Shown: piece by piece, positions 214 to 52,354 of the stretch
How the letters are laid out: the number at the start of each line of letters is the position of its first letter
Position numbering within the stretch: position 1 is the first letter of the stretch
DNA from: a virus
Taxonomy: Duplodnaviria > Heunggongvirae > Uroviricota > Caudoviricetes
IMG/VR virus record: IMGVR_UViG_2778261139_000002
Location: 22,595-86,594 of that record
Length of the DNA stretch: 64,000 bases
Reading direction: 5' to 3' (one strand)
Notes under the pieces: model-generated
Database searches by the model: none
What the model was told of the DNA's origin: nothing
What the model saw: only the letters and a program-made list of their open reading frames with translations
Program-made: the position numbers and the translations under genes

Positions 214-1479
214 ATGAGCGGATTTGCACAGGGGTTACTTGCCGGATTCAGCACCGTTGACCAGGCAATGACCCGTCGTAAGGAGCTTGGTCTGCGTGAA
301 GCACAGCTTGCCCGGCAACAGAAAAATAACGAGCGCGATTTTGAATTTGCGCAGTCTCAGTTTGAGCACCGGAAAGAGAATGATCAGCGTACATATGATC
401 TTAATGTCAGGAATGCTGACCGTGAATATGCGCTGAAAGAGAGGGAACACAAAGCAGCGCAGAATTATCGAAATGCGTCACTGGGTATGGAGCAGCAGCG
501 ACTCCAGTTGCAGAAATACAACCAGCGACGGCTTGAGTATAACGATATGCTGGCGCGCGATCAGCCTGTGATGGCTGCGCTTGGAAAGGCTGTGGATGCT
601 GGTGATCGGGATGCGGCAATGCGTCTTTACGGGCAGTTGTCAGAGGGTAATCCGCTGAGGCTGATGGCGAATGATGGCTATGCAGCGAAAGCGGGGCAGG
701 CCGTGAACAACCTGCAGAAAATCTTTGATGATAAGCCGGACAGGGCGATTGCTTCGCTGAATACCCCGGAAAATCTCGATGTGCTTTCCGGCGTGTTTGC
801 CCCGGAACTACAACAGCGTATTGGCATGCCTGATTCAACCGGGGAAAAGACAATAAAAGAGGCCAGGATTGGCAGTATCGTACCGGCGCAGCAGGAAGGG
901 TACGTACTTATTGGTCTTGATCTCACATACAGCGATGGCTCCACCGCGCATAAACCTGTAACAGAATACGGCAGTGCACATCCTGATGATCAAACCGTGC
1001 TGGCGATACCCGTTGATAAGGCTGTCGCTCTTGTCAGGGATCGCAGTAAATTCGCGGAAATTTCGAAAAATTACGGTTATTTCATGCCGAAGCAGCAGGG
1101 ACTTTCTCTGAAAGAGCTTCAGAAGGGGGCCAGCAACGTAGCGGCGGAGGCGATCAAGAATGGCGGTAATGCTCAGGCTGCGGTGGATGAATATTATGCT
1201 GCGACTGGTTCACAACCGCATCAACAGAAAATTCAGCAACAAAAACTTCAGCAACAGGTTATCAACTGGGCGGGAGATGATCCTGATAAGCTGTCATTTG
1301 CCAGAAATGTAGCGGCCCGTCAGCCTGAAATGCTGGAACCTCAGAATCAGAAATTGCTGGAGAACGGGTATGCGAATTTTCTCCGTATTCAAAAGGCCAG
1401 GGGGGAACAGGCCAGAGATGAAAGTGCTTCATCTGCATCTCAGTTTATCCGTGGACTGAAACAGAATTACGCCCAGTAA
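214..1479 (+). CDS. Hypothetical coiled-coil-rich protein, 421 aa (possible virion/late protein)
   Basis: Long ORF with AAGGAG 6 nt upstream of ATG; Gln/Arg/Glu-rich predicted coiled-coil composition; no family recognised. Confidence 0.6.
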   Translation: MSGFAQGLLAGFSTVDQAMTRRKELGLREAQLARQQKNNERDFEFAQSQFEHRKENDQRTYDLNVRNADREYALKEREHKAAQNYRNASLGMEQQRLQLQKYNQRRLEYNDMLARDQPVMAALGKAVDAGDRDAAMRLYGQLSEGNPLRLMANDGYAAKAGQAVNNLQKIFDDKPDRAIASLNTPENLDVLSGVFAPELQQRIGMPDSTGEKTIKEARIGSIVPAQQEGYVLIGLDLTYSDGSTAHKPVTEYGSAHPDDQTVLAIPVDKAVALVRDRSKFAEISKNYGYFMPKQQGLSLKELQKGASNVAAEAIKNGGNAQAAVDEYYAATGSQPHQQKIQQQKLQQQVINWAGDDPDKLSFARNVAARQPEMLEPQNQKLLENGYANFLRIQKARGEQARDESASSASQFIRGLKQNYAQ

Positions 1480-1511: not shown

Positions 1512-1538
1512 GCCCGGCCATTGTGCCGGGTTTTTTTA
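1512..1538 (+). terminator. Rho-independent terminator/attenuator hairpin followed by T7 tract
   Basis: CCCGGC-cattgt-GCCGGG followed by TTTTTTT, directly upstream of the giant ORF RBS. Confidence 0.5.
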
Positions 1539-1548
1539 TGGAGTCTGT

Positions 1549-4500
1549 ATGGCCTATTCAGAGGAACAGCGTCCTGAGGCGCAACTCGGTAACCAGAATC
1601 GTAACAGCCTGAACATTCAGCAACCCGGCGAAACTGACAGCTATGAAGCATTTTTCTCTGATCCGAATCGCTGGAAGGATAACAGTACGTCGTTCAGCCT
1701 GGGCGATGTATTGCCAACAATGGGTAAAGGTTTCGCCCAGTCCGTCCGGGGAACAGGGGAAATGGCCCGTGGACTCGGTGATGCGATGATTCAGAGCCCG
1801 GTAAAAACAGGGGTGCGTATTTTAAATGAGTTCAGCCGTATGGGGCTGCCGGGTGTCGCAACTGTGCAGGATATTTTTGCCGGTGGCAGCAGGGGGGCTG
1901 ATGAGGTCATCGATACCCTGCCTGATGGCAAAAACGCGGTTACTGATACTGTCGGTAAAGGTCTGAAGGCAACCGGTAAGGCTGTCAGTGATGGTGCTAA
2001 AGCCTCGGATGAATGGCTGACCGATAATATGTCGCCGGGTGCTGTGCGTGCGCTGAATACGCCAATGAGTGAAGGCTATGATGATCCCGCAGTCTGGCTG
2101 ACGAAGGGGATGAATTTTGTCGGTGCCGTTGCGGCAGATGTGTTTGCTGGCGGTGTGGCTAAAAAGGTGGGTGATGTCACACTGCGAAAAATGCTGACCG
2201 CCGGGCTGGAGAAAAAATACATCGCGGCAGGGATGCAGCCGGAAAGAGCCACGGCACTGGCAGCAGACGCTGTCGATAAAAAAATGCCGGATTTATTCCG
2301 GGCGGGCCTGATCACCCATTCCACAGCCAGTGCACAGGGGCAGAGTGCAATGGCGGCAGCAGATGCTGTTCTTAATGCGGATTACTCTGAGCTGGCGCAG
2401 TCACCGAAATTTCAGCAGACGTTTTTGTCCATTGACGCCGACCCGCAGCACGCACAGCTTACTGATCGCCAGAAAATGGACCTGGCAAAAGAGCGTGTGG
2501 CTGATGAGGTGCGTGCGCAACTGGCAACCGATCCTCAGTTGCTGGCTGTGAATGCCATGGCGGCAAAACTGGGCGATGCTCAGTTGCTTAATCTGGCGAT
2601 GCGGGGCACGGCGAATACCGTTAAAAGCGGCATGATCAGAAACGCCACTGAACAGGGGGCGATTAATGCGGCGCAGGGCGGCTATTCACGCTATCAGGAA
2701 AACATGGCACTGCGTGATACCGCCGGAATGGATGTGTCGCCGTGGGAGGGCGTGGCTGACGCAACGATCGAAGGTGCAGCCCTTGGTGCTGCGATGGGGG
2801 CACCATTCGGTGCGGTTGCCGGATATCGTGGCAGACGTCAGGCGGCAGATGAAGCCGCCATGCGTGAGGCTGAAGTCGTACAGCAGGACGACGCAGCCCC
2901 GCAACCAGAATCTGTTGATCCGGTGGCGCAGCATCGTGAATCCATGCAGGGGATGAATCGCGAGCAGCTTCTGGAGCAGTATGCTGATGCGGATATGGCG
3001 ACAGAGGGTGACGCATCCGCAACTCATCGCCGGGAAGCCGCCAGCCAGCTGTTGAATGAACTGGACGAACAGGCGAAGCGACAGGCTGTGATGAATGAGC
3101 TGAAGGCGAAGCCGCGTTCTGAACTGCTTGAGGAATACCGCAGACTCAGCCAGAAAGAGGGGCGCACCGAGACTGAAGAACAACAGTTTCAGGCAATACG
3201 AGAAGTCATTCGCCCACAACAGGAAGTGACGCCGGAAGCACAGTCACAGTCTGAAAATGCGGAGGATGGTAACGGGAGCATTTACCCGACGGTGCGGTTC
3301 CGGGACCCGAATGAAGTCCGCATTGAAATTAACGGGAATGGTGCGTCCAGACCAGCGGAACGCATTGAAAAGGTGCGCCCGGACAACCGTTATTTCACGG
3401 ATGAGAAAAGCGCCATGGGGAGTGATGTTTTCCGTAATGCCGCCGCCACCGGCCTGAAACCGTCCGTAGTGAAGAAAGGCGAGAATCAGTATGCCGTTGA
3501 AATGGATAATCCTGCGTTCTCTGAAAATGTGGCAACGGAAACCATTAACACCCTGGCTGACGGAGAGCGTATTGCTGATGCTGACCCGATGGAGCAGCCC
3601 GCGTTCATGCGTGACCCGCGATTCCGTGGTTTCACGGGGGATGATACGGAGGTACAGGCCCGCCTTGCCCGTGGCAACGCGCCGACGGCGGAGGAGCTTG
3701 TACGTTCACAGATGGCTGAAGGTGATGCCGGTCCGACAGCACAGGAGTTAACTGAGCGTCCGCGTCTGCCCGCCCCCGGCGATATTCATCCCGGACAGGG
3801 ATATCCGTTACCGGGAGAGGTGGCGCGTACGCCGGATGAGAATCAGGCCGGACGTGGTGGTCGTTTTACCACAACCGGTGAGGTTAAGGGCCAGAGTTTC
3901 CAGAAAGGACGCGGCCCGGCACAGGAAAACGCCGCTGGTCGCCAGGGGGAAATACTGGAGGGCGAAACTGTTCGTCGTGGTCTGCCGTCACCGGATGAGC
4001 AGAGTGTTACCGCCCCGGTACGTGAAGGTCTACCGGCTCCTGACATTACACACAATGTCCGCATGCCTCAGCCTGAACAGCTTCCCCGAACTGTTCGCAA
4101 CTCATTACCTGAGCTGGCACAGCAGGCAGAAGTACGCCGACAGACAGGAGAAGTTCGCGACATCCCGCATGCTGAAACAACAGCACATGAGTCTGAAACA
4201 GTTGCTGCTACTGATGGTGAAGGTGCCGCACGCGGAGGTGTTGCCGGGGGCAAAAAAATTGAAGACTTTGGCGAGGAAATTAAAGGGGCAGCCAAACACC
4301 GTTATGCACAGCTTGCTGAAACACTGGGTAAAACGCTGGAAGACAGGGATTATGCCACGCAGCCGCTGAGCAAACTGTTCCCGAAACCGGACTACGCAAA
4401 ACTGGCGAACGAAGGTGCCGATGCTGACACTCTGGCAATGATAGCTCTGTATCGTAGCGATATTCCGGCGAAGACGAAACACAATACGGCAGGCTGGGGG

Positions 4501-7500
4501 GAGAGCATAAAAAAAGTACGACACAGTGTATCGGAAATGCTGAACGGAACGGTCAGCGCGAAACGCCTCGCAGAATGGATGGAAGGTAGAATGCCCTCCC
4601 GTTACGCGGATACCTGGCAACTGTTACGCACTCTGCCACCCTCACAGATGGACAGGGCTTCTGCTTATCGGGTGGTATCGGGTGTGTATCAGGCGGCAGG
4701 AGGGAAGCGTTACGATCCGCCACAGAAACTTTATTCACTGCGCAATAAGGACAATAAGGGGAGTAACCTCTTTTTCTCGGAAAGCAGGGATGAATTACTG
4801 GCAAAGGCGAAAGTCTGGTTTGCAGAGCAGGAGGAAAAATCACAGGCGAAAGGTGATGAAAAAACAGCACCGTCACCGGATGACAAAATCCGCTTTGACG
4901 TTTACCGGAATACCCGCAGTGGCGATATTTTTATCGCTTACGGTAAAAACAAAATGCGGGTGAGAGGTGGCTTTAAGTCAGCCAGTGATGCGCGTAAGTA
5001 CATTGATTCACATCGTGATGAGCTTGTTCGTCATGTGAAGGATATGCGGGAGATTTCGCGTGAGGAGCAGCGTAACGCCACCAACCGCGACCGTACCGGA
5101 CCAGAACGCCGTAAAGGGGATGTTTCACCGGAGCAGTTCAGTGATGCGTTTGGTTTCCGTGGTGTGCAGTTTGGTAACTACGTGGAAGGTCCGCGTCGTC
5201 AGGCTGATTTGAACCGGGCTTATGACTCGCTGCATGACCTTGCGGAAGTACTGAATGTACCGACAAAAGCGCTTTCCCTGAACGGTCGTCTTGGCCTGGC
5301 ATTTGGTGCCCGTGGTAAGGGTAAGGCGGCGGCACACTATGAGTCAGGTGAGGTGGCAATCAACCTGACAAAAGGTAACGGACCGGGGGCGCTGGCGCAC
5401 GAATGGTTCCATTCACTGGATAATTATTTTGGTCGTTATGACGTTTCCACTGACGGGAAGATTACGTCAGGTGGCGACTTTATGACGGAAGCACAGCGTG
5501 CCAGGCGCGTATTTAAAGACGGCAGGTATGTTGATGCTGAATATCCGGTACGTCAGGAGGTTTACGACGCTTTTAAAGGTGTGATTCAGGCCATTAAAAA
5601 CAGTGACATGCCGCGTCGTTCAGCGCTTCTCGATGAGGTGCGCTCAAAACCGTACTGGTCAACGGATGTTGAAATGGCGGCACGTGCCTTTGAGCGTTAT
5701 GTTCAGGATAAGGCGCGTATGGCTGGCGTGGAGAATGATTATCTGGTCAATATCCGTAAGGCACCTGAGCACAACACAGATAACACTTGGGCTTATCCGA
5801 CGAATGCGGAACTGGATGGCGGTATTCGTGAGGCATTCGATCACCTGTTCCGCACCCTGAAAACCCGTGAGACGGACAAGGGCGTTGCGTTTTATTCCCG
5901 TAAGGGCGTTACCCGCACACCTGAAGGTAATCTCATTTCGGATGTTAACCGTAGTGCGGAAGCCAAAGGCAGCCCGGTCCCGCAGGTTGAAGCGGTTGCC
6001 CGTGGCGTGATGAGCGGCATTAAGGACAGTGACCTGAAGGTCCGTGTGGTGAAGTCACAGAAAGAGGCTGAAGCGCTGGCGGGTGAATCGTTCGACGGTT
6101 ACGGCAGGGTGCACGCATTCTATCGTCCGGATAAACGAGAAATTGTCCTGGTGGCGGATAACATCCCTGACGGGCGGACCGTACGCGAGAAGTTGCGTCA
6201 CGAGATTATCCACCATGCCATGGAGCATGTTGTCACGCCAGCGGAATATCAGACGATTATCAAAACCGTGCTGAAAACCCGCGACAGTGATAACGCCACC
6301 ATCCGTGAAGCATGGCGTAAGGTTGATGCGTCCTATGGTAAGGAATCACCGGAAGTACAGGCGGGTGAATTTCTGGCACATATGGCGGAGAAACAGCCGA
6401 ATAAATTCGTGGCGGCATGGGAGCGTGTTGTTGCCCTGGTCAAAGGGGTACTGCGTCGTACGGGGTTACTGAAACCGACGGAACTGAACGATATCAGACT
6501 TGTTCGCGAGACCATCCGTACGTTAGGCCAGCGTGTGCGGGAAGGTTACACGCCGCGTGAGGATGGCGCGGGCGCATCGTCTCAGTACTCCCGTAGTGGT
6601 AAACCTGATCCGTTCAAAGTGCCGGAAGGTGAGGGTGAACGTTATCGCGATGACCTTGCCAGAATGATGAAATCTCTGCGTACCACAGATTTAACGGTAA
6701 ACATCGGGCGTACGCCGCCGGTATTGCGTCACCTTGGTGCACCGGATTTGCCGCTGGTTATTTCCCGCGATACTGTGCGGAAGGCCACCAATGGTGTGAA
6801 ACATGTGGTGCCGATGGATGTTATCGAGAGACTACCGGAACTGATGCACGATCCGGATGCAATTTACCGTTCCGCGACAGAAAGAAATGCGGTTGTGATG
6901 CTGCTTGATGCCGTGGATAAAAATGGTGATCCGGTAGTGTCTGCGGTGCATATGAAGGCAACCCAAAAACTTCTGGAAGTTAACCGTATTGCTTCTGTTT
7001 ACGGAACGGAAAACGGGAAAAAACTGAAGAGTATGGAAATGGCTGGCTTAACATTATACAGGAGAGAAAAACTAAACCCTGATGGTTCTCTGTACAGAGG
7101 GCTCCAATTGCCCAAAGATGAGCACTCCCGTCAGGGTTCTGCGGATAAAATACTCTATCCTGAAGATATTCGCAAGGGGCCGTATTACTCCCGTACCAGC
7201 AGTCTGACACCGGAAGAGACAATTGCATCGCGTTTTGTGCGCCAGATGCAGGATAAATTCCAGGTGCTGAAAGCTGTTCAGGAGAATATCCGTAAAACTG
7301 GTGGAAAAATAGACGACAGTAACAACGCTTATATGGCGGAAGAACTCTTCCACGGGAAGGCGGAAAACGACCTGAACGTGATGAAGGAGCGCTACGTTCA
7401 GCCACTGGCTAAATTACTGGCGGACTACAAAATTGCGCAGGCCGATCTGGATGAGTACCTCTACGCCCGTCACGCGCCGGAACGTAACGCGCATATCGCG

Positions 7501-9930
7501 AAAATCAACCCGAAAATGCCGGACGGCGGTTCGGGGATGACCAACGCGGAAGCGGCGGAAATCATGCAGCGTGTACGTAACAGCGGCAAACAGGCACAGT
7601 ATGACCGTCTGGCAGGGATTGTTGACGATATGCTGGCCCGTCGCCGTGAGCTTATCCGTGAGGCCGGACTGGAAGAGAGCGGTGTGGTGGATGCTTGGCA
7701 GAACGCCTACCGTTACTACGTTCCCTTGAAAGGGCAGGATGTTGACGGTGTGGTGTCACTGCCCCGTACAGGTAAGGGCTTCACCATCGGTGGGCGTGAA
7801 AGTAAGCAGGCCATGGGGCGTGCATCCCGCGCACAGTCTCCGTCCACTCAGGCGATACAGGACTTGAGCGAATCGCTGATCCGCAGTCGCAAAAATGAAG
7901 TGGGTAACGCCTTCCTGAAGCTGGTGCAGGATAATCCCGATAAGGATTACTGGCAGGTATTCACTGATGACAGACCGGATACCATGCGTGTGATTGCAGA
8001 GCGCAAGGACCAGGAAACTGGTGAAACCATTCGCGAAGTTGTCGAGCGTCCGGTGGCGATGGCAATGATGGCAGACCGGTACTTCACCACCAAAAAGAAC
8101 GGCAAAACGTACTACATCAAACTCCATGATCCGCGCCTGATGCGTGCGATGAAGAATATGGGACCGGAAACCAGTAACGCAGTAATCCGTACGCTGGGGA
8201 AAGTTAACCGCTTCCTGGCAACGGTGAACACGTCGTATAACCCGGAATTCCTGGTCAGTAACTTTATCCGTGACGTGCAGACAGCGGTGATGAATCTGAA
8301 GGCGGAGCAGGGAAGGAGCGACGGCAAACTGAAAGGGCTGGATAACTTATCCGCACTGGCTGTGGTGAAAGACAGCCGTTCTGCTATGTCAGCCGTATAC
8401 GCCAGTCTGCGTGGCAAAAACCTCACGGGCAAAGGTGCGCAGTGGCAGAAGGTGTGGAAAGAGTTTGTTGAGGACGGAGGTAAAACCGGCTGGTTTAACA
8501 TGGGTGACCTTGAAGGCCAGCAGAAGGAAATGGATCGCCTTGTATCGCTGGCGAAGGGAGGATGGAAAGGCCAGAGTATCGGTGCATGGAATTCGTTCCT
8601 TAACCTTGTCGAGGATGCCAACGGGGCGGTTGAAAATGCTCTGCGTCTTTCTGCCTATAAACACGCCCGTGATGCCGGTTTGTCACGCCAGCAGGCGGCG
8701 TCTCTTGCCAAAAACATGACGGTGAACTTTAATCGTCGTGGTGAGCAGGGAGCGCTGATGAACTCGCTGTATATGTTTGCCAACGCCAGCATTCAGGGGA
8801 CGGCAAACCTGGTGAGAACGCTCGGACATCTTAATGGCGACGGGCCGTTACTGGAGCGCCTTCGCTGGAAGAATCTCAATGTACCGCAGAAAATCGCGCT
8901 TGCAGCTGTGGGTGCGGGTTATCTGCTTGGCTCGCTTAACCGCAGTGTTGCGGGGGAGGATGATGACGGGGTTAACTGGTATGACAAGGTGCCGTCTCAT
9001 GTGAAAGAGCGTAACCTCGTCATTATGAAATCGGTGTTCGGGGGCAAGGCCGGAGAGTACTGGAGTATTCCTCTGCCTTACGGGTACAACGTTTTCTTCC
9101 TGCTCGGGCATACTGCTGAAGGTGTGGCGGCAGGTGACCTGACGGCGTCCCGTGCTGCCGGTAATGTTGTCGGTGGTATCCTGGGGGCATTCAGTCCTGT
9201 GGGCAGTGAAACGTCGGAAACACTGTCCGGGGCATTGCTGAAAAATGCAGCGCCGACCATTCTGCGTCCGTTTGCGAACCTTGCCATGAATGAAAACTTC
9301 ATGGGGGCGCAGATTTACCAGGAGAACATGCCGTTTGGTACACCAAAACCTGACAGCCAGCTGGGAAGACGTTCAACGCCAGAAGCGTACAAGGCGTTTG
9401 CATCCTGGCTGAATGCGTTCTCAGGTGGCAGCCAGTATCGTCCCGGCGCGGTGGATATCACACCGGAATCGCTGAAATTCTGGATTGACTATATCTCCGG
9501 AGGGACAGGGCGCTTCATTTCCAAAACCACGGATGCGGCGGTGAAATCGCTGAATGGTATTGATATACCGGAGCAGCAGGTGCCTTTCCTGGGGAAAATT
9601 TCAGGTGAGGTGATGCCGTATACTGACCAGCAGAAGATGTACGACCGGATGACAGAGGTCGCGCAGTATCACGCAGAGCTGAAGAGTCTGAGCGGTGCAG
9701 AAAGAACGGCATTCATTGACGAGAACAACGGAAAATTGTCGATGAACGGGCTTATGCAGGATACCCGGAAGAGACTGAAGGATTTGCGCAAACAGCGCGA
9801 TGCCATTTATGCCGACAGTTCTCTCAGTCTGGCGCAGCAGGCGGCGATAGTGAAATCGGTAGAGCGGGATATGAAGGTTGCCGTGGATCGCTTTAACCGC
9901 GAGTACAACAAAAAAGTGGGAGTGGATTAA
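1549..9930 (+). CDS. Giant multidomain protein, 2793 aa, with two HExxH zincin-like motifs (polyvalent virion/injected protein candidate; function unknown)
   Basis: Uninterrupted 8.4 kb ORF; start moved from tabulated 1510 to ATG 1549 (GGAG 5 nt upstream; 1510 lies in terminator hairpin); motifs ALAHEWFHSLD (~nt 5398) and LRHEIIHHAMEH (~nt 6199). Confidence 0.8.
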   Translation: MAYSEEQRPEAQLGNQNRNSLNIQQPGETDSYEAFFSDPNRWKDNSTSFSLGDVLPTMGKGFAQSVRGTGEMARGLGDAMIQSPVKTGVRILNEFSRMGLPGVATVQDIFAGGSRGADEVIDTLPDGKNAVTDTVGKGLKATGKAVSDGAKASDEWLTDNMSPGAVRALNTPMSEGYDDPAVWLTKGMNFVGAVAADVFAGGVAKKVGDVTLRKMLTAGLEKKYIAAGMQPERATALAADAVDKKMPDLFRAGLITHSTASAQGQSAMAAADAVLNADYSELAQSPKFQQTFLSIDADPQHAQLTDRQKMDLAKERVADEVRAQLATDPQLLAVNAMAAKLGDAQLLNLAMRGTANTVKSGMIRNATEQGAINAAQGGYSRYQENMALRDTAGMDVSPWEGVADATIEGAALGAAMGAPFGAVAGYRGRRQAADEAAMREAEVVQQDDAAPQPESVDPVAQHRESMQGMNREQLLEQYADADMATEGDASATHRREAASQLLNELDEQAKRQAVMNELKAKPRSELLEEYRRLSQKEGRTETEEQQFQAIREVIRPQQEVTPEAQSQSENAEDGNGSIYPTVRFRDPNEVRIEINGNGASRPAERIEKVRPDNRYFTDEKSAMGSDVFRNAAATGLKPSVVKKGENQYAVEMDNPAFSENVATETINTLADGERIADADPMEQPAFMRDPRFRGFTGDDTEVQARLARGNAPTAEELVRSQMAEGDAGPTAQELTERPRLPAPGDIHPGQGYPLPGEVARTPDENQAGRGGRFTTTGEVKGQSFQKGRGPAQENAAGRQGEILEGETVRRGLPSPDEQSVTAPVREGLPAPDITHNVRMPQPEQLPRTVRNSLPELAQQAEVRRQTGEVRDIPHAETTAHESETVAATDGEGAARGGVAGGKKIEDFGEEIKGAAKHRYAQLAETLGKTLEDRDYATQPLSKLFPKPDYAKLANEGADADTLAMIALYRSDIPAKTKHNTAGWGESIKKVRHSVSEMLNGTVSAKRLAEWMEGRMPSRYADTWQLLRTLPPSQMDRASAYRVVSGVYQAAGGKRYDPPQKLYSLRNKDNKGSNLFFSESRDELLAKAKVWFAEQEEKSQAKGDEKTAPSPDDKIRFDVYRNTRSGDIFIAYGKNKMRVRGGFKSASDARKYIDSHRDELVRHVKDMREISREEQRNATNRDRTGPERRKGDVSPEQFSDAFGFRGVQFGNYVEGPRRQADLNRAYDSLHDLAEVLNVPTKALSLNGRLGLAFGARGKGKAAAHYESGEVAINLTKGNGPGALAHEWFHSLDNYFGRYDVSTDGKITSGGDFMTEAQRARRVFKDGRYVDAEYPVRQEVYDAFKGVIQAIKNSDMPRRSALLDEVRSKPYWSTDVEMAARAFERYVQDKARMAGVENDYLVNIRKAPEHNTDNTWAYPTNAELDGGIREAFDHLFRTLKTRETDKGVAFYSRKGVTRTPEGNLISDVNRSAEAKGSPVPQVEAVARGVMSGIKDSDLKVRVVKSQKEAEALAGESFDGYGRVHAFYRPDKREIVLVADNIPDGRTVREKLRHEIIHHAMEHVVTPAEYQTIIKTVLKTRDSDNATIREAWRKVDASYGKESPEVQAGEFLAHMAEKQPNKFVAAWERVVALVKGVLRRTGLLKPTELNDIRLVRETIRTLGQRVREGYTPREDGAGASSQYSRSGKPDPFKVPEGEGERYRDDLARMMKSLRTTDLTVNIGRTPPVLRHLGAPDLPLVISRDTVRKATNGVKHVVPMDVIERLPELMHDPDAIYRSATERNAVVMLLDAVDKNGDPVVSAVHMKATQKLLEVNRIASVYGTENGKKLKSMEMAGLTLYRREKLNPDGSLYRGLQLPKDEHSRQGSADKILYPEDIRKGPYYSRTSSLTPEETIASRFVRQMQDKFQVLKAVQENIRKTGGKIDDSNNAYMAEELFHGKAENDLNVMKERYVQPLAKLLADYKIAQADLDEYLYARHAPERNAHIAKINPKMPDGGSGMTNAEAAEIMQRVRNSGKQAQYDRLAGIVDDMLARRRELIREAGLEESGVVDAWQNAYRYYVPLKGQDVDGVVSLPRTGKGFTIGGRESKQAMGRASRAQSPSTQAIQDLSESLIRSRKNEVGNAFLKLVQDNPDKDYWQVFTDDRPDTMRVIAERKDQETGETIREVVERPVAMAMMADRYFTTKKNGKTYYIKLHDPRLMRAMKNMGPETSNAVIRTLGKVNRFLATVNTSYNPEFLVSNFIRDVQTAVMNLKAEQGRSDGKLKGLDNLSALAVVKDSRSAMSAVYASLRGKNLTGKGAQWQKVWKEFVEDGGKTGWFNMGDLEGQQKEMDRLVSLAKGGWKGQSIGAWNSFLNLVEDANGAVENALRLSAYKHARDAGLSRQQAASLAKNMTVNFNRRGEQGALMNSLYMFANASIQGTANLVRTLGHLNGDGPLLERLRWKNLNVPQKIALAAVGAGYLLGSLNRSVAGEDDDGVNWYDKVPSHVKERNLVIMKSVFGGKAGEYWSIPLPYGYNVFFLLGHTAEGVAAGDLTASRAAGNVVGGILGAFSPVGSETSETLSGALLKNAAPTILRPFANLAMNENFMGAQIYQENMPFGTPKPDSQLGRRSTPEAYKAFASWLNAFSGGSQYRPGAVDITPESLKFWIDYISGGTGRFISKTTDAAVKSLNGIDIPEQQVPFLGKISGEVMPYTDQQKMYDRMTEVAQYHAELKSLSGAERTAFIDENNGKLSMNGLMQDTRKRLKDLRKQRDAIYADSSLSLAQQAAIVKSVERDMKVAVDRFNREYNKKVGVD

Positions 9931-10053
9931 CAGAAATGGCCCCGTACGGAAGTGCGGGGCTGATTAAGGAATAAACACACATTAACCTGTAATAACCGGA
10001 GCTATTAACATATAGTCAGAAAGAGTATTTCATGTGAGACAGAGAGCCGATTT

Positions 10054-10245
10054 ATGTTTAATGAAGAAAAAGTTGCGCAAATGGCAGCGTATTTGCTGAA
10101 AAAGCATGGCGGATCTATGCGTTTCATTAAGCTGATGAAGCTGATGTATCTCTCTGACCGCAAAGCAATGGAGTCTTTAACCGGGAAGGGGAGAGGTTTG
10201 AATGCTCCCCCACAATTCCCCGGCATCAAATCTCCATGCAGGTGA
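10054..10245 (+). pseudogene. Possible N-terminal remnant of a phage-associated (Panacea/DUF4065-like) gene
   Basis: 63-codon ORF; first ~40 aa (MFNEEKVAQMAAYLLKKHGGSMRFIKLMKLMYLSDRKAM) resemble the N terminus of that family from memory, then low-complexity tail; lies in convergent gap. Confidence 0.25.
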
Positions 10246-10331
10246 ACTATTTTACCCCCAGCGGCAAATCGCAAAAACAATCAGTGCGATCGAAATGGCA
10301 GCCACTACAATTGCAAATGCTTCAGGCTAGG

Positions 10332-11258
10332 TCATTGGCGTACCTCCTTCGGCGGTTCTGGTAGCGGCATCCAGTGGGTTACTTCTTTGAGATGCAGGTC
10401 TTCGCCATCACCGTCATCCCAAGTGGGATTGCCATCATTAAACCAGTCGCCATATACGCCGACCTGAGTGTTGGGGATGCTTGGTGGGTAGTTGTTTTTA
10501 AAGTCAGCTGCTAACACATAGTATTGTCGCTCTCCCATTTCTGGCATTCGATCACTACAGCTTATCCAACCATCCGGAGTTACCGGAACTGGCGGAACGG
10601 CTGTTTGCTCTCGAACGTCATTAGTCGCTATCGGTTCTGCTGCCAACTGACTGGCATATTTGTTAATGGTAACGATAAGCTCTTGCTCAGCCTCATCCAG
10701 ACAATCACCGATACCTCGCCTGTCACCGTCAAAATCATCGAAATCGGCACGAATCTTGGCAACCTTCTGGATTGCGGACAACACCTCACTAGGAATTACC
10801 GGATAGTTGGTTGACGTTTCCGCGATTTCCCGAAAATTATTGGTTGACGAATTCTTGTTTTCCCGAAAGTTTCCGGACTGAAGCATGGCGGCGCGGCAGG
10901 CATTCCAGCCTCTTACCTCTGCAATAGCGGCAACCGCATCAACCGCGTACATGCTAAGAGGATTAGGCATTGGTTTTTCTTCCGGTACTACTGGTGCTGG
11001 AGGGGCGGCGTAAATGCCCTCTATCACTAAATGTTTGCGCTCAAAATCATCTGGCTCTCGATGATATACGTAACTCCAATCACCAAGGTTATCATTGCGC
11101 CTGCAACGGAAACCTATCGGCTCGGCTTCCAGCGCTGCCAGAGCAATTCGTGCCAGTTCTTCCGCTTCTTCTGCTGGCAGTACAACGTTGCTACCAGGTC
11201 CGTATGTTTCGCGCCACTGTTTGATTGTCAGCAGTCGCCCTTTGGTAATAGTGATCAT
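10332..11258 (-). CDS. Phage protein with C-terminal DUF551-like motif, 308 aa
   Basis: ORF; C-terminal ...HLKEVTHWMPLPEPPK resembles the DUF551 signature; translationally coupled to upstream gene. Confidence 0.55.
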   Translation of the reverse strand: MITITKGRLLTIKQWRETYGPGSNVVLPAEEAEELARIALAALEAEPIGFRCRRNDNLGDWSYVYHREPDDFERKHLVIEGIYAAPPAPVVPEEKPMPNPLSMYAVDAVAAIAEVRGWNACRAAMLQSGNFRENKNSSTNNFREIAETSTNYPVIPSEVLSAIQKVAKIRADFDDFDGDRRGIGDCLDEAEQELIVTINKYASQLAAEPIATNDVREQTAVPPVPVTPDGWISCSDRMPEMGERQYYVLAADFKNNYPPSIPNTQVGVYGDWFNDGNPTWDDGDGEDLHLKEVTHWMPLPEPPKEVRQ

Positions 11259-11770
11259 GCCGCGTTTCCTTCTTTCTTATTAACAATCACACCGTCATAT
11301 ATTTCATTAAGGTGCCCCCTCAACTCCATGCGCCTTAATGCAGATAACATGTAATCGCATTCAACCTGCTTATTTCCAGTAAATGGCTTATCGTCAGGAT
11401 TACCCCAACAGCAATTACCCTTGGGCCACCCATGTACTTTCCGTACTCTTCCGTTAACAACGTGAAGTAACCCCCAGCCAGCTGGTAAATCCTCAATTGA
11501 AATAATTCCCGGCTCACTAATAAAGAATCGCCAGTCGCCCATTCCAAGAGACGGATTTTTACGAAAACGCTTTTTTCTATCTGCTAACAAGTCAGCACGA
11601 GAACACTTCGCCTCTATCAGGCATGATGCTGAATTTCTGAATCCCATAGCATCTGGCTGTTCTCCGGTACTGGTTACAGCTATAAAGCGGTCATGAAAAC
11701 AAACCTTGAACCCGTTGCGCTTAAGGAACTTGTACGCAATCTGACAGAGTTCGCGGTGTGTTAGCGCCAT
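11255..11770 (-). CDS. Hypothetical protein, 171 aa, possible PD-(D/E)xK nuclease fold
   Basis: ORF with 4-nt overlap to next gene; D...EAK arrangement (PDAMGF...CLIEAKCSRAD) noted by eye only. Confidence 0.5.
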   Translation of the reverse strand: MALTHRELCQIAYKFLKRNGFKVCFHDRFIAVTSTGEQPDAMGFRNSASCLIEAKCSRADLLADRKKRFRKNPSLGMGDWRFFISEPGIISIEDLPAGWGLLHVVNGRVRKVHGWPKGNCCWGNPDDKPFTGNKQVECDYMLSALRRMELRGHLNEIYDGVIVNKKEGNAA

Positions 11771-11875
11771 ATCACTCTCCTTTGATGCCAGTGTTTACAA
11801 CCTGACAAGCCTCTTTGAGCACCCAGTCAACAGCGTCTTTCCATGCTCCGGTTTCGGCTGGCGGATTCTCACGTT

Positions 11876-12466
11876 TTACCTGCTCATAGAAGCCAGTCCT
11901 TCCGGCACTACTGGCGATGGCTGTTTAGCTTCTAAATCAGCAATTCTGTCAACCACGGCATCGACAGCATCTGAAAAACTGAAACAGTTACTCCACTCAG
12001 GCCTATCCCCGGTTGCTGCAAAGTACATATCAGCTAAAGCAGACTCAGCATGGTCACGCTCATTAATGAGTTGCTCTTCGCTTTTCTCCAGTTCTGCAAT
12101 GCGCTTACTTCCATCCGCGATTACACCCTCGTAATATTCACGCTGCTCGTTGAGTTTTGATTTTGCTGCTTCCAGCTCAACGCGCAGCTTCCCTACCGTT
12201 AGCGCAATATCCTCGTTCTCCTGGTCGCGTGATTTGATGTATTGCTGGTTTCTTTCCCGTTCATCCAGCAGTGCCAAGACGGTAGCCGGATTGGCTGCTG
12301 CTATGAATCGCTTATTGGCGCGATTATCTGTTCCTGAGCATGATGCTATGTAGTAATTGGCGTTCAGTCCGGCATTGGCAATAACCCCATAGTCATCAGT
12401 ACACCATTCGCCTGGTGTTGCATTTTCTGCCGCCAGCCGCAGTGCTTGATAGCTAACTCCGTTCAC
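11876..12466 (-). CDS. Ead/Ea22-like prophage protein, 196 aa
   Basis: N-terminal ATPGEW motif and central coiled coil typical of Ead/Ea22-like proteins. Confidence 0.55.
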   Translation of the reverse strand: MNGVSYQALRLAAENATPGEWCTDDYGVIANAGLNANYYIASCSGTDNRANKRFIAAANPATVLALLDERERNQQYIKSRDQENEDIALTVGKLRVELEAAKSKLNEQREYYEGVIADGSKRIAELEKSEEQLINERDHAESALADMYFAATGDRPEWSNCFSFSDAVDAVVDRIADLEAKQPSPVVPEGLASMSR

Positions 12467-12684
12467 TTCACACCTCTCTGTTTGTTGATAAGTTCAATAT
12501 CCTGCTGGCAACTTGCGCAAGCTCGGCATCCACGAACAGCCAGGCGTCGCCGCTCATCTATCGGATCGCCACACTCGCAACAATGAGTAGCAGATGGGGC
12601 ATTACTATCGGATTTGTATTTTTGCAGGGAGAGATTGCGCTGCAATTCTTCGATTTCAGCGGCATTGTCGACGATATCTGCCAT
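12463..12684 (-). CDS. TraR/DksA-family C4 zinc-finger protein, 73 aa
   Basis: CECGDPIDERRR...CRACASC four-cysteine motif at C terminus; size typical of phage TraR. Confidence 0.65.
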   Translation of the reverse strand: MADIVDNAAEIEELQRNLSLQKYKSDSNAPSATHCCECGDPIDERRRLAVRGCRACASCQQDIELINKQRGVK

Positions 12685-12731
12685 TTTCCTTTCCTTCAGG
12701 CATGAAAAAAGGAGCCGAAGCTCCTTTGGTA

Positions 12732-13361
12732 TCAGAATTCAAATTGTCTTGCCCGCAGGCTTTTCAGCATTGGCATGGCCCGCTGGATAACGGAACTTGA
12801 CATGTCGAGACGTGTTACCTCCCTCAGTAGCGCGTCTCTGTTCTTCGTCACCATGTAGATGGTCTCAAACGCAATGTCATACAGCTTGTTCGTGTATGAG
12901 GAGTTCAGCTCTTTCATAATGGGATACAGGTGTTTGCTGATGTCCTGGGCTTTTTCCATCCAGAGCTGCATGTAGCAAAGGAGGATGATTTCCTCGGCTG
13001 TGAATTGCGGCTGTGGTTCTGCTTGTACTGGCTGAATGTTGCGAAGTTTCTTTTCGCACTCGATGAAGTAGCGGCGTATCTGGCGGCCTTTTTCGTTACG
13101 TTCAACCATCGCAAGCTCTTTGGCTGTGTCGAGGGTGAGGTGGTAATCCTTGCGGCGGCGGCCTGGAGTTTTCGCCAAATTTGGCGAAAATAGAATGTAG
13201 TCTAAATTTTCTACGAATCCATACTCGTTTAGCCTGGCCCGTATCCAGTTAGAAAAATCTTTACCTACCTCTAAAAATCCATGCAAATCACGCGCGTTCA
13301 CCAGAAGCGTAGGTTCATTTGAGATTGTACCTTCAAACACAGGGATGAGTTGAGTGGTCAT
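12732..13361 (-). CDS. AntA/AntB-like antirepressor-domain protein, 209 aa
   Basis: N-terminal LIPVFEG...ARDLHGFLEV...FSNWI pattern recalled from the AntA N-terminal domain; last gene before element end. Confidence 0.5.
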   Translation of the reverse strand: MTTQLIPVFEGTISNEPTLLVNARDLHGFLEVGKDFSNWIRARLNEYGFVENLDYILFSPNLAKTPGRRRKDYHLTLDTAKELAMVERNEKGRQIRRYFIECEKKLRNIQPVQAEPQPQFTAEEIILLCYMQLWMEKAQDISKHLYPIMKELNSSYTNKLYDIAFETIYMVTKNRDALLREVTRLDMSSSVIQRAMPMLKSLRARQFEF

Positions 13362-13698
13362 GATGACCTCCTTATTTGTTTAGTTTATAACCGCCAGTTA
13401 GTAGCTGGCGGTCGGGTGTCAACTGAGCCAAATAAGAAGCTCTGGGCATATTCCCCTTGCGGGTGTTGTATTACGCCTCTCCACCCGACCTTTGTACGGA
13501 TGTAACTATGCCAAATTGCAGGCATAAAAAAGCCGCAAAGCTATCGGGTGCGGAGACCGCTTATTTGTTCAGTGCGATCAGTATGCGATAGCTCTGACGG
13601 ATTTGTCAAATCGTGCAGTAACATCCTTTTCTTCCTTGCCATTTCTCAATGATGACAAAGGGTGGATTCGGATTGGTATTGGGACAAAAGTGAGACAC

Positions 13699-13732
13699 AC
13701 AAAGCTTTGCATCGGCTTACAAAGCTTTGCAT
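13699..13732. repeat. Two 14-bp direct repeats (ACAAAGCTTTGCAT) 20 bp apart, each containing the 10-bp palindrome CAAAGCTTTG
   Basis: Exact copies at 13699-13712 and 13719-13732, about 80 bp inside the inferred element end. Confidence 0.7.
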
Positions 13733-13776
13733 GTTTTTCAATGTTGGGACGTGTGAGCGCAGAAATGACGGGCTAT

Positions 13777-13890
13777 CTAATTGATTTTAAACGATACGTA
13801 ACCAACTTTAAAATCTTTGCACGCCAGTTCGCAGGTTTTACAGCCAGTACAGCGGCTGGAATCGATAAAAAATCCATATTGTGTGGTCAT
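13777..13890 (-). pseudogene. ynfG: ynfG 5-prime fragment (4Fe-4S subunit gene truncated by the mobile element)
   Basis: Translation MTTQYGFFIDSSRCTGCKTCELACKD matches the recalled YnfG/DmsB-type N terminus, then diverges and stops after 37 codons; start 10 bp after ynfF stop. Confidence 0.7.
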
Positions 13891-13900
13891 GGGCTACTCC

Positions 13901-16327
13901 TTAAACCTTTTCGATCTGGACAAGATTGCTGTGCGACGGGTTTCCCTTTGCCAGCGGTGAAGGGCGGTGAGAGGTCAGAATATTGATACTGCCGCCGTGA
14001 TCGACCCGGTCACCAAACATATCCGCTTTAAGCCACGCACCTTGCCCGATGGCGGTAACGCCAGGCAGAATACGCGGAGTCACTTTTGCGGCAATCAGCA
14101 TTTCTCCATTATTGTTAAATACCCGCACGGTATCGCCATGACGGATACCGCGTGCCTGAGCATCAATGGGGTTGATCCACACCTCTTGTGGGCAGGCCTG
14201 CTGTAACACATCAATATTGCCGTAGCTGGAGTGGGTACGCGCTTTGTAGTGGAAGCCCGTTAACTGCAGTGGATAGGTTTTCCGCAGGGGATCGTCCCAG
14301 CCATCAAAACCTGGGGTATACGCAGGAAGGGGATGAATAATTTCATCTTTTTTCAATTCCCAGGTATCTGCAATCTTCGCCAGTCGTTCCGAATAAATTT
14401 CGATTTTCCCCGAAGGTGTTTTCAACGGGTTTGCCTGTGGATCTTCACGGAATGCGCGGAAAGCGACGTAGTGTTCTTCCGGGCATTTTTTCTTAAAGAT
14501 CCCGGTCGTTTTCATCTCCTCGTAGTCGGGCATCTCAGGGTTACGTTCCTTCGTTTTCGCATGGAGATATTTGATCCATTCATGCTGACTGCGACCTTCA
14601 GTAAAGGTTTGATAAACGTCTGGTCCTAAGCGTTTGGCGACTTCACTCAGCATCCAGTAGATGGGTTTGCGTTCAAATTTTGCTGAGGTTGCGGGTTGGG
14701 CGAGGATCACATAGCCCATATTCCCTGCAGATTCATGAGAGATAAGGTCTTCTTGCTCTGTTGGCATCAGGTCGGGCAACAGGATATCGCAATACTTAGC
14801 CGAGGCCGTCATGAAGTGGTCAATGCCAACAATCATCTCGCACTTGCTGTCATCCTGAAGCACCTCATGGGTGTGATTGATGTCGCCATGTTGATTGATC
14901 AATGTGTTACTGGCGTAGCACCATAAAAACTTGATGGGGACATCCAGTTTTTCTTTTCCACGAACACCATCACGGGTCGCGGTCATTTCCTTACCATGGT
15001 CGATGGCATCTGTCCATGTAAAGACGGAAATCTGCGTTTTAACAGGGTTCTCAAGCATCGGGAACCATTCTACCCCCAGATCCCAGCTACCTTCGCGTAC
15101 ACCTGAGTTGCCGCCGTTTATGCCGACGTTACCGGTGAGAACGGAAAGCATGGCAATAGCGCGGGACGTTTGCTCGCCGTTGGAATGTCGTTGTGGCCCC
15201 CAACCCTGACAAATATAAGCAGGTTTTGCTGAACCGATCTCTCGTGCCAACTGGATAATTTTTTCTGCCGGGATGCTGGTGATTTTTGCTGCCCATTCCG
15301 GCGTTTTAGCTATGCCGTCAGGCCCTTCGCCCAGAATATAGGCTTTATAATGCGCGTTACGTGGTGCGTTGGCGGGCAGAGTTTTTTCATCGTAACCAAC
15401 ACAATATTTGTCGAGAAATGGCTGATCGACCATGTTTTCAGTAATCAGTACCCAGGCAATCGCACAGGCCAGTGCGCCATCGGTGCCTGGGCGAATGGGC
15501 AGCCATTCATCTTCACGCCCGGCAGCTGTGTCGTTATAACGTGGATCGATGACGATCATGCGTGCGTTTGAACGTTCGCGGGCTTGCTCGACGTAGTAAG
15601 TGACACCACCGCCGCTCATCCGCGTTTCTGCCGGGTTATTTCCGAACATAACGACCAGTTTCGTATTGGCGATATCATCCGGGCTGTTGCCATCATTGGC
15701 ACCGAACATATAACTCATTGCGGCACTGATCTGTGCGGTACTGTAGCTGCCATAGCGACTGAGAAAACCACCGCAAGAGTTCATCAGACGGTACGGGACG
15801 TTTGAGTTGGTGATGTTTCCGCCATCTACGCCTGTTCCGTACAGGACATGTACAGCCTCATTGCCGTAATCTTTCAGGATCCGCCGAAGATTATCACTGA
15901 TGGTATCCAGGGCTTCGTCCCAACTTATCCGTTCAAATTTACCTTCACCGCGCTTGCCGACGCGCTTCATGGGATATTTCAACCTATCAGGATGATTCAT
16001 CCGTCGGCGGATAGAGCGCCCGCGTAAACACGCTCGAACCTGATGGTTACCGTAGACGTCGTCACCTGTCGTATCAGACTCCACCCAGTACACGGTGTCA
16101 TCTTTCACATGCAAACGTAACAGACAGCGGCTCCCGCAGTTAACGGTGCAGGAACTCCAGACCGCTTTCTCTTCTACCGGAGCCTCTGCCGCCCGGACCA
16201 TTTGGGAAAATGGCAGAGTGAAAGCACTGCTTGCCAGCGCAAGACTGCCAAGTGCGGAGGTTTTCATCAGACTTCTACGGCTGATTTCAGCCTTCATGAG
16301 CGCCTCTGTGGTATGGATTTTCATCAT
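13901..16327 (-). CDS. ynfF: Molybdopterin oxidoreductase catalytic subunit (DmsA paralogue) with Tat signal
   Basis: 808-aa ORF; twin-arginine SRRSLMK signal, Cys cluster CTVNCGSRC, DmsA-family length; position distal to ynfE. Confidence 0.9.
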   Translation of the reverse strand: MMKIHTTEALMKAEISRRSLMKTSALGSLALASSAFTLPFSQMVRAAEAPVEEKAVWSSCTVNCGSRCLLRLHVKDDTVYWVESDTTGDDVYGNHQVRACLRGRSIRRRMNHPDRLKYPMKRVGKRGEGKFERISWDEALDTISDNLRRILKDYGNEAVHVLYGTGVDGGNITNSNVPYRLMNSCGGFLSRYGSYSTAQISAAMSYMFGANDGNSPDDIANTKLVVMFGNNPAETRMSGGGVTYYVEQARERSNARMIVIDPRYNDTAAGREDEWLPIRPGTDGALACAIAWVLITENMVDQPFLDKYCVGYDEKTLPANAPRNAHYKAYILGEGPDGIAKTPEWAAKITSIPAEKIIQLAREIGSAKPAYICQGWGPQRHSNGEQTSRAIAMLSVLTGNVGINGGNSGVREGSWDLGVEWFPMLENPVKTQISVFTWTDAIDHGKEMTATRDGVRGKEKLDVPIKFLWCYASNTLINQHGDINHTHEVLQDDSKCEMIVGIDHFMTASAKYCDILLPDLMPTEQEDLISHESAGNMGYVILAQPATSAKFERKPIYWMLSEVAKRLGPDVYQTFTEGRSQHEWIKYLHAKTKERNPEMPDYEEMKTTGIFKKKCPEEHYVAFRAFREDPQANPLKTPSGKIEIYSERLAKIADTWELKKDEIIHPLPAYTPGFDGWDDPLRKTYPLQLTGFHYKARTHSSYGNIDVLQQACPQEVWINPIDAQARGIRHGDTVRVFNNNGEMLIAAKVTPRILPGVTAIGQGAWLKADMFGDRVDHGGSINILTSHRPSPLAKGNPSHSNLVQIEKV

Positions 16328-16384
16328 TACTCACTTATTGCTTTTCAAACAAAATGTCATGCCAGAATTTATGGTTGTCGTGGG

Positions 16385-18811: not shown

Positions 18812-18910
18812 AACTCACTCCCTGTTCTTTATCGTTATATAAATGTTTATATATTGAATATTTAGCGCGCTAACAATAGAGGGAGTCTACCCATTTTGGG
18901 TTAAGAATTA

Positions 18911-18924
18911 TTAATCCATATCAA
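18911..18924. promoter_or_regulatory. Possible FNR-type site (TTAAT-N4-ATCAA) upstream of ynfE
   Basis: One mismatch to TTGAT-N4-ATCAA, ~100 bp upstream of the ynfE start; purely motif-based. Confidence 0.25.
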
Positions 18925-19009
18925 TAGAAGGGTATGAGTAATAAGGTGGGATTATGTTGTATGTTCAAATCGCCGGATGTGTCGTATCCGGCGTTCAGTC
19001 GATAATGTA

Positions 19010-19315: not shown

Positions 19316-19422
19316 CATAAGCTCCTTACGCGAAGATAACTTCTTTAAGCATAGCATTTAACGTGTAAAGTACTGTATTTGCTACTATGATTGAGAATCA
19401 TCTCTACTCTCTGGTGACTGTT

Positions 19423-20133: not shown

Positions 20134-20135
20134 TG

Positions 20136-49693: not shown

Positions 49694-49706
49694 TTCCTGG
49701 TTCAGG

Positions 49707-51665: not shown

Positions 51666-51688
51666 ACGTCGCAGACAACAACTCTGAT

Positions 51689-52343: not shown

Positions 52344-52354
52344 AGAGGTGTGGG

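Follow-up and report, generated by a model that had tools for sequence, protein, structure and literature searches.

What kind of protein does a prophage encode in a single reading frame of 2,793 codons at the end of its late operon, and what would a phage use it for? The question is raised by a 64,000-nt stretch of a tailed virus (Caudoviricetes) in IMG/VR (record IMGVR_UViG_2778261139_000002, positions 22,595 to 86,594), hereafter called the window, in which the frame occupies positions 1549..9930 of the + strand (2,793 amino acids plus stop). A preliminary description, made from the nucleotide letters alone, had read the product as a giant polyvalent protein with two HExxH zincin-type motifs, and had preferred a virion-internal, ejection or host-takeover role to that of a conventional tail fiber. 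In the following, we identify the gene as one already known from short-tailed Shiga toxin-converting (Stx) phages, in which it is essential for infectivity and its product is found in the virion. We then describe the domains of this product, part of which recurs in the giant proteins of very distant phages, and argue that it is probably an internal virion protein that is ejected with the DNA. Amino acid (aa) numbers are counted from the ATG at 1549 throughout.

An essential virion protein outside the ordered particle

Megablast recovered the whole 8.4 kb, full length and at 90-99% identity, in 186 phage records, which are those of Stx-converting or closely related short-tailed phages (POCJ13, 933W, VT2-Sakai/Sp5, phi24B and Shigella phage 75/02 among them); nucleotide identity to POCJ13 is 98.9%. 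By this sequence evidence the gene is ORF80 (ECs1242) of Sp5, gp47 of phi24B and gp71 of POCJ13, and the phages belong to the subfamily Sepvirinae. RefSeq names the product "LPD5 domain-containing protein" in POCJ13 (gp71) and in 933W. Each copy encodes 2,793 aa and each is the last gene of its late operon, with no material difference among them; the copy in the window lies in a prophage next to ynfE/ynfF. The gene is therefore no new discovery, having already figured in publications from 2016 and 2026, and the experimental record attached to it can be brought to bear on the question directly.

Genetic evidence comes from Sp5, in which deletion of ORF80 left excision intact, DNA packaging at the wild-type level and the heads normal-looking, and abolished both plaque formation and lysogeny, a defect that could be complemented (Mondal et al., 2016). 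The gene is thus essential for infectivity and dispensable for head assembly and DNA packaging. The same authors placed ORF80 under "tail formation" by exclusion and suggested, from a match to COG1483, that it encodes an AAA+ ATPase. Physical evidence comes from a 2026 preprint on phi24B, in which gp47 was found in purified virions and in no density obtained from cryo-electron microscopy (cryo-EM) or negative staining, and in which the authors propose that it is an encapsidated ejection protein. The cryo-EM model of this T=9 phage contains no gp47 and assigns the portal, the two adaptor rings, the nozzle, the needle and the fibers to other gene products. In the virion proteome of the supplementary table, gp47 accounts for 10,962 peptide-spectrum matches (PSMs), second only to the capsid protein. 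Since its peptides (28-95 PSMs each) span the chain from aa 19-41 to aa 2645, the whole polypeptide is present in the particle, outside the ordered virion structure. Counts are highest in the first four gel slices, ahead of the slice with the maximum for the 724-aa portal, and trail off into later slices; the peptide sheet gives totals only, with no peptide counts per slice. The protein is accordingly mostly of high molecular weight, which gives no evidence of processing by its metallopeptidase (MPTase) domains inside the virion. PSMs per residue, normalized to 12 portal copies, yield a rough figure of ~23 copies per particle, by a method that comes out about right for the spike, nozzle and adaptor 1, at twice the true value for the needle, at about two thirds for the capsid protein and five-fold off for adaptor 2. 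Knockout and proteome alike agree with the earlier preference for a virion-internal or ejected protein over a tail fiber, and neither Pfam nor PHROG matching turned up a tail fiber, collagen-repeat or tape-measure domain in the protein.

The gene call on which the preliminary description relied also holds. On the + strand the list of open reading frames (ORFs) gives a frame open without a break from 1510 to 9930, the translation matches PHROG 616 from end to end, and a stop-free run over 2,793 random codons would have a chance of ~6e-59. The preference for ATG 1549 over the tabulated start was likewise well placed, as ATG 1510 falls within a hairpin resembling a terminator, T-run included (1512-1538), behind which comes a GGAG ribosome-binding site (1541-1544; the whole element at 1512..1544, + strand). 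The arms of this hairpin (GCCCGGC-loop-GCCGGGT) lie at 1512-1531 with the T-run behind them; a terminator scan reports a stem of 7 bp with 6 G-C pairs and a T7 tail, and RNA folding of the region gives -18.6 kcal/mol (z = -1.6). The start chosen by RefSeq (POCJ13 gp71) and in the Sp5 literature is identical and gives 2,793 residues. The hairpin sits inside the late operon, between a 421-aa gene and the giant gene, where it may govern how much of each product is made relative to the other, or require Q antitermination for readthrough. In the GenBank record of phi24B this region appears as a "putative leader peptide."

As had been described, the gene stands immediately before a convergent accessory module at the prophage end: it is the final late-operon gene, preceded by the 421-aa ORF (214..1479) and followed by convergent DUF551, Ea22 and AntA genes, and the prophage ends in the window at ~13.4-13.9 kb, where it adjoins ynfE/ynfF. 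In several GenBank records the giant gene is cut into two to eight "hypothetical proteins" or has spurious ORFs annotated on its antisense strand (for example vb_24B_50c, 51c and 52c). Elsewhere in the window, at ~45,800..64,000 on the + strand, large ORFs that share one strand (700, 526, 739, 1,031 and 1,132 aa) make up a second and unrelated block, which resembles the giant gene in G+C content and GC skew and has the appearance of a long-tailed lambdoid prophage's late region.

Domain anatomy and the two zincin-like domains

The protein can be divided into seven regions, all encoded on the + strand. The N-terminal domain (aa 1-440; 1549..2868) is Ala/Gly-rich; hydropathy and GxxxG analysis show moderate hydrophobicity and a Gly-zipper-like pattern in two of its segments (aa 187-207 and 407-426), and matches to Gly-zipper models in Pfam are faint. 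Its full length is confined to Stx-type phages, aa 279-408 being found in Vibrio and Aeromonas phages as well, and its peptides (aa 19-41, 116 and 234) are among those detected in phi24B virions. An acidic stretch follows (aa 441-1040; 2869..4668) that is rich in Pro, Glu and Gln, has a net charge of -25 and gave no domain match when Pfam was run on tiles; also represented by peptides in phi24B virions, it is judged from its composition to be a linker that is probably disordered. LPD5 (aa 1051-1200; 4699..5148; Pfam PF18799, E = 4e-45), a domain listed as potentially enzymatic (Iyer et al., 2017), leads into the first zincin-like domain, MPTase 1 (aa 1182-1440; 5092..5868), which includes LPD1 (aa 1361-1440, Pfam E = 9e-24). 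The second zincin-like domain, MPTase 2 (aa 1485-1690; 6001..6618), is followed by MuF_C (aa 1750-1837; 6796..7059; Pfam E = 3e-17), a PBECR domain of RNase fold in which the His of the N-terminal helix and the C-terminal Ser/Thr conserved in active PBECR clades are present as H1752 and S1816. The preprint speaks of a "MuF-C metallopeptidase," a label that we reject, as the fold of MuF_C is that of an RNase and neither HExxH motif lies within it. The chain ends with a conserved C-terminal module (C-module; aa 1880-2793; 7186..9927), inside which LPD38 is found at aa 2476-2681 (nt 8974-9591; Pfam E = 3e-48). Just after MuF_C, a GLQ tripeptide (aa 1851-1853; nt ~7099-7107) is kept in nearly all of 75 homologs, distant ones included; that it marks a processing site at the boundary between payload and chassis, as these terms are used below, is pure speculation.

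The four Pfam matches (LPD5, LPD1, MuF_C and LPD38) all exceed their gathering cut-offs, and all four families were defined for polyvalent proteins, the giant multidomain proteins that phages encode among their virion genes (Iyer et al., 2017). Several effector-type domains, an MPTase hub and a late-gene position combined with presence in the virion are all found here, and by sequence the protein is a member of the phage-type polyvalent proteins, as the preliminary description had supposed without naming a family. Its two MPTases correspond to the two variants distinguished by Iyer et al. (2017), one with an Asp three residues after HExxH and one reading HExxxH, in a main text that mentions neither 933W nor the Stx phages. 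The earlier statement that Walker A, helicase and methyltransferase motifs are missing stands as well: the pattern [AG]xxxxGK[ST] is absent from the entire protein, and Pfam returned no helicase or methyltransferase domain. As such, the proposed AAA+ ATPase (COG1483; Mondal et al., 2016) is rejected, with neither a Walker A motif nor a match to an ATPase family in its favor.

Both HExxH motifs lie outside the four Pfam matches. A search with ten overlapping tiles, of the kind that the preliminary description had recommended, and with diverse members of the two HExxH domain families placed no Pfam model over either active site; the only signal was a faint one for Peptidase_M76 (E = 0.1-0.18), the Pfam MPTase-PolyVal model matched neither domain, and nothing meaningful emerged when PDB chains were searched by sequence and by profile with the whole protein, with the CLCA_X core and with MPTase 2. 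The motifs themselves, noted by eye in the earlier description, are ALAHEWFHSLD (aa 1281-1291; nt 5389-5421) and LRHEIIHHAMEH (aa 1549-1560; nt 6193-6228), with the HExxH strings at aa 1284-1288 and 1551-1555. Composition alone would give 0.039 such strings in a protein of this kind (P of two or more = 7e-4). Independently of this statistic, conservation among homologs settles that the motifs are not fortuitous, although the two domains differ in how far the canonical spelling is kept.

In motif 1 (H1284-E-W-F-H1288-S-L-D1291; nt 5398-5421) the residues H1284, E1285, W1286, H1288 and D1291 are 100% conserved in 78 homologs below 75% identity, as are H1263, E1265, N1272 and T1274 and, in LPD1, D1362, Y1369, E1375, R1379 and E1382. 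The domain matches NCBIfam NF041907, "CLCA_X family protein," over aa 1182-1437 (model positions 3-245 of 250, E = 7.7e-44). At 150 bits this match stays below the curated naming cut-off of 260 bits, so that homology to CLCA_X is clear and a name at the level of the subfamily is not warranted. Lenart et al. (2013) predicted CLCA_X to be a family of zincin metalloproteases, with the self-cleaving CLCA_N as its sister; phages and plasmids are where it is enriched, and many of its members are very long. The ~250-aa length and the HExxH-xx-D motif are common to family and domain, the latter being embedded in the giant protein between LPD5 and the second MPTase. Lenart et al. (2013) print the consensus as HExxHxxxD, against HExxHxxD in the giant protein and its homologs; the phage-type MPTase clade of Iyer et al. 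(2017) is characterized by a conserved His that ends strand 2 and an Asp that follows HExxH by three residues. Judging by these residues, the motif 1 domain would belong to the CLCA_X zincin family and correspond to that Asp-bearing clade, which gives motif 1 a family name that the preliminary description lacked. LPD5, the CLCA_X core and LPD1 move as one module, which also occurs free-standing in proteins of ~400-900 aa.

Motif 2 (R-H1551-E1552-I-I-H1555-H1556; nt 6199-6216) is no less conserved, in a different spelling. When aa 1485-1690 were searched exhaustively with HMMER, 381 cluster representatives came up at E <= 1e-3, and in nearly every one the domain sits mid-chain in a protein of 1,000-6,000 aa. 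Among 146 sequences of this family, H1551 is kept in 144, E1552, the second His and E1607 in every one, and A1610 and E1614 in 135, the last three positions (E1607, A1610 and E1614) sitting in a downstream helix. The spacing is HExxxH in 138 of the 146 and HExxH in six, all of Stx/Salmonella type, in which a one-residue deletion has produced the string HEIIHH. Three of four distant giants (from Vibrio, Ralstonia, Burkholderia and MetMV) read HExxH and one reads HExxxH. The canonical spacing is therefore not kept across the family, and the description of a second canonical HExxH signature has to be given up to this extent; the conservation suggests a functional domain whose canonical spelling would be specific to a clade. 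The predicted topology runs from a beta-sheet to the active-site helix and on to the Glu-bearing helix, with YbeY, Spartan, minigluzincins, neprilysin, Wss1, IrrE and thermolysin listed at lower Z. The form HExxGH resembles the M49/DPP III motif, a likeness that would show no more than the compatibility of such a spacing with zinc binding. An HEXXXH clade of MPTases with a bent helix has been described by Iyer et al. (2017).

A proposed chassis and payload, and cysteine content

The most widely shared part of the giant protein is its 914-aa C-module. With this module as query, tblastn reached Vibrio podophages (42% identity), the Methanosarcina virus MetMV (29%), Ralstonia phages of the GP4/Gervaise type and the "DarB-like" giants of the Burkholderia phages Bcep22 and BcepIL02. 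The proteins that carry it in these relatives are 3,000-4,700 aa long and, in the three bacterial phages, are encoded by the final gene of the structural module. Local hidden Markov models (HMMs) place MPTase 2 immediately before the C-module in the giants from Vibrio, Burkholderia and Ralstonia and further upstream in that of MetMV, and find neither CLCA_X nor MuF_C in any of the four; each has exactly one HExx(x)H motif, which lies inside its MPTase 2 domain. SLT, an Eco57I-type methylase and LPD3 are also present in the Burkholderia and Ralstonia proteins, the former having a helicase domain in addition, and no Pfam domain is recognizable in the remaining regions of the Vibrio and MetMV giants. 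Because MPTase 2 and the C-module are the only parts common to all of the distant giants, we read them as a putative constant chassis and the other domains as payload that would be specific to each lineage. The two parts of this chassis are separated in the Stx protein by an inserted MuF_C.

An AlphaFold2 model of the C-module (predicted local distance difference test [pLDDT] 82.4, predicted TM-score [pTM] 0.77) is compact and mostly helical, with one small beta-domain, and Foldseek found no fold match for it in the PDB (best E 0.33). The Gly-rich hydrophobic stretches that had been noticed toward the C-terminus, AAVGAGYLLGSL (aa 2452-2463) and GNVVGGILGAF (aa 2538-2548), fall in two segments of this module (aa 2445-2465 and 2535-2553). 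In MetMV, an archaeal virus, the protein with MPTase 2 and the C-module is 3,002 aa long (4584..13592 of the MetMV locus; 29% identity, HMM E = 2e-190), and the module is by this token not confined to hosts with a Gram-negative envelope. The idea of the C-module as an autonomous gene of ~900-1,000 aa was dropped: the "stand-alone" LPD38 protein that was inspected (P0156, 981 aa, at 10001..12946 of its locus, from a metagenome-assembled genome of Amphritea) lies in a ~15 kb degraded prophage devoid of structural genes and is probably a truncated remnant, and some other short relatives of the C-module probably likewise derive from truncated giant genes.

Close parallels are the "DarB-like" giants of Bcep22, BcepIL02 and JC1 and the Ralstonia GP4/Gervaise proteins, which share MPTase 2 and the LPD38-bearing C-module with the Stx protein and which, like it, are cysteine-free, are encoded by the last gene of the structural module and follow a virion protein of ~500 aa. 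In the Bcep22-like phage JC1 the giant, gp69, had the second-highest score in virion mass spectrometry. Their payload consists of an SLT lytic transglycosylase, an Eco57I-type methylase, a helicase and LPD3; the Stx protein has LPD5, CLCA_X with LPD1, and MuF_C instead. Pfam, the tile searches and the missing Walker A motif show none of the methyltransferase and helicase domains of P1 DarB in the Stx protein, and for want of a methylase or helicase it is not DarB-like in the defining sense.

The second feature that recurs among the giants is an absence of cysteine. The Stx protein has none, nor do the Vibrio (3,066 aa), Burkholderia (4,667 aa) and Ralstonia (4,433 aa) giants, which together with it amount to 14,959 aa; that of MetMV, with three, is the only one of the five giants examined to have any. 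Among 36 homologs of the C-module there are 4 cysteines in 40,084 residues, and 100 of 122 MPTase-2 proteins of at least 1,000 aa have none. Stand-alone LPD5-CLCA_X homologs contain 0.48% cysteine and neighboring prophage genes 1-4%. The established ejection proteins gp15 and gp16 of T7 and gp7, gp20 and gp16 of P22 are cysteine-free, as are N4 gp50 (the 3,500-aa injected virion RNA polymerase) and the N4 virion proteins gp51 and gp52; other virion proteins contain 0.55% (T7) and 0.79% (P22), and non-virion proteins of the two phages 0.7-1.1%. Cysteine would be selected against if passage through the tail channel in an unfolded state, and then through an oxidizing periplasm, carried a risk of disulfide trapping. 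The survey is a small one and does not amount to proof. The literature searched makes no mention of cysteine depletion in ejection proteins, and Iyer et al. (2017) are silent on cysteine.

This signature extends to the genes upstream. The last five Stx-type late genes (218, 148, 83, 421 and 2,793 aa; POCJ13 gp67-gp71, at 9288..20382 of the POCJ13 locus, the block ending at 9930 in the window) are all cysteine-free, most late genes further upstream have cysteine, and all five counterparts in phi24B are detected in virions; these genes may form an "ejection cassette." Among them is the 421-aa gene (214..1479, + strand), which corresponds to ORF79 of Sp5 and gp48 of phi24B and belongs to PHROG 601, as does the gene before the Vibrio phage giant. 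Its product contains no cysteine. ORF79 is essential, with a phenotype identical to that of ORF80 (Mondal et al., 2016), and gp48 is represented in phi24B virions by 1,634 PSMs (~37 copies by the same rough estimate). The preprint table labels gp48 "Transcription factor?" and seems to have set it aside as a contaminant; we consider it probably a second, companion internal or ejection protein.

Proposed mode of action and alternatives

We favor, with somewhat more confidence than doubt, the reading that the short-tailed Stx phages encapsidate this protein, as a giant polyvalent component of the virion interior, and eject it with the DNA. Some 10-40 copies would be packed with the DNA inside the T=9 capsid. 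Release of the tail needle at infection would let the protein leave through the portal and the tail channel, unfolded and free of disulfides, and cross the envelope with or ahead of the DNA. The chassis (aa 1485-1690 and aa 1880-2793) would supply the essential function, namely incorporation into the head, passage across the envelope, or both. The payload (the N-domain, LPD5, the CLCA_X zincin with LPD1, and the inserted MuF_C/PBECR domain) would act at the envelope or in the cell, possibly after cleavage by a zincin; as no processing is evident inside the particle, any such cleavage would come after ejection. We infer ejection itself and this division of labor between chassis and payload, and the formation of a conduit, self-processing, and the peptidase and RNase activities are put forward in the same sense.

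By analogy, the protein may work like known ejection proteins to which it has no detectable homology. The T7 (gp14, gp15 and gp16) and P22 (gp7, gp16 and gp20) sets are internal, needed for infectivity and dispensable for head filling according to the literature, and all but T7 gp14 are among the proteins counted above as cysteine-free; the Stx phages would have one 305 kDa polypeptide in place of three smaller proteins, with enzymatic domains added. N4 gp50 is a giant encoded among virion genes of a phage that also has a T=9 capsid, in which an N-terminal region serves injection, the middle carries the enzymatic payload and an MPTase-containing C-terminal region serves encapsidation (Iyer et al., 2017). 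The Stx protein matches no RNA polymerase family, and thus lacks the polymerase domain of gp50. Moreover, gp50 escapes detection by the C-module HMM (E = 5), and hhalign gives only a weak match between MPTase 2 and the N4 MPTase region (probability 37%). Homology of the C-module to the C-terminus of gp50 or to the T7 and P22 ejection proteins was accordingly rejected as undetectable (HMM and phmmer scores of at most 6 bits).

Several observations weigh against the reading that we favor. The claim of ejection goes back to the 2026 preprint, which itself argues from absence from density maps. Neither in sequence nor in fold does the protein resemble the ejection proteins of T7, P22 or N4, with HMM scores at noise level and no Foldseek hit better than the E of 0.33 given above. 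The gel slices in which gp47 is found lie mainly above ~80 kDa, the copy number is a crude spectral-count figure, and predictions make the C-module a compact and soluble body of helices in which no classical transmembrane segment occurs. Finally, Mondal et al. (2016) found that particles lacking ORF80 did not bind an antibody to the tail fiber (data not shown) and concluded that the protein has a role in tail assembly.

This last conclusion, in which the protein would be a tail-assembly factor or structural component, perhaps an energy-using AAA+ machine that attaches tails to filled heads, accounts for DNA-filled heads that bind no antibody and takes up the reported COG1483 match (Mondal et al., 2016). 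The antibody result is negative and unshown, however, and loss of an internal protein could weaken tail attachment indirectly; the phi24B tail model is complete without gp47, and neither a Walker A motif nor an ATPase family in Pfam, NCBIfam or PHROGs speaks for an energy-using machine, so that we regard this role as quite unlikely. In another account, the protein would be an internal head body or DNA-organizing core, engaged in DNA condensation, pressure control or plugging of the portal, and would remain behind or come out passively with no part in envelope crossing: such a core would be abundant, inside the head and unresolved by cryo-EM, and the preprint does mention "internal tail contents" as a core. 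DNA packaging is at the wild-type level in its absence, however, a passive core would offer no ready reason for the conservation of hydrolase active sites, and the complete lack of cysteine, as in proven ejected proteins, argues for passage through the periplasm. We give this explanation very little credence.

Slightly better placed than either, yet still improbable, is a purely injected effector for anti-defense or host takeover, comparable to P1 DarB or T4 Alt, which would have no mechanical role and would be essential by neutralizing a host function. The polyvalent domains, the retained His and Ser of the PBECR domain and the early-phase effector model of Iyer et al. would fit such a protein, as would a PHROG match to "DarB-like antirestriction" (aa 2351-2681), except that this match falls wholly within the LPD38-containing C-module and methyltransferase and helicase domains are lacking. 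The parts conserved across distant hosts are, moreover, the non-enzymatic C-module and one MPTase, not the payload domains. Deletion of the Stx gene eliminates plaques and lysogeny alike, a harsher outcome than for accessory antirestriction proteins such as P1 DarB, which a phage can do without on a host that does not restrict. A more elaborate scheme builds on ejection and makes the protein an injected, self-processing "polyprotein." About twenty copies would enter; MPTase 2 would cut the chain, with GLQ (aa 1851-1853) as a candidate site, and free a conduit-building C-module; and the CLCA_X peptidase/LPD5 unit and an active PBECR RNase would strike targets in the host envelope or RNA. Absence of cysteine would then serve as a general predictor of phage proteins that cross the periplasm, and the last five late genes would constitute the ejection cassette. 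Taken as a whole we hold this scheme to be doubtful, though less so than the other alternatives.

For an internal and probably ejected protein, the analysis describes a putative chassis that would be separable from its payload and points to H1284/E1285, H1551/E1552 and H1752 as precise targets for mutation. It corrects the literature in two respects, in that the protein is no AAA+ ATPase and its MuF_C is an RNase-fold domain rather than a metallopeptidase, and it adds families for both HExxH domains, the HExxxH norm of motif 2, the split between chassis and payload, and the cysteine-free signature. This last feature may help to spot ejected phage proteins from sequence alone. For the short-tailed Stx phages, which carry Shiga toxin genes between Escherichia coli and Shigella, these considerations concern a single gene that makes up ~14% of the genome.

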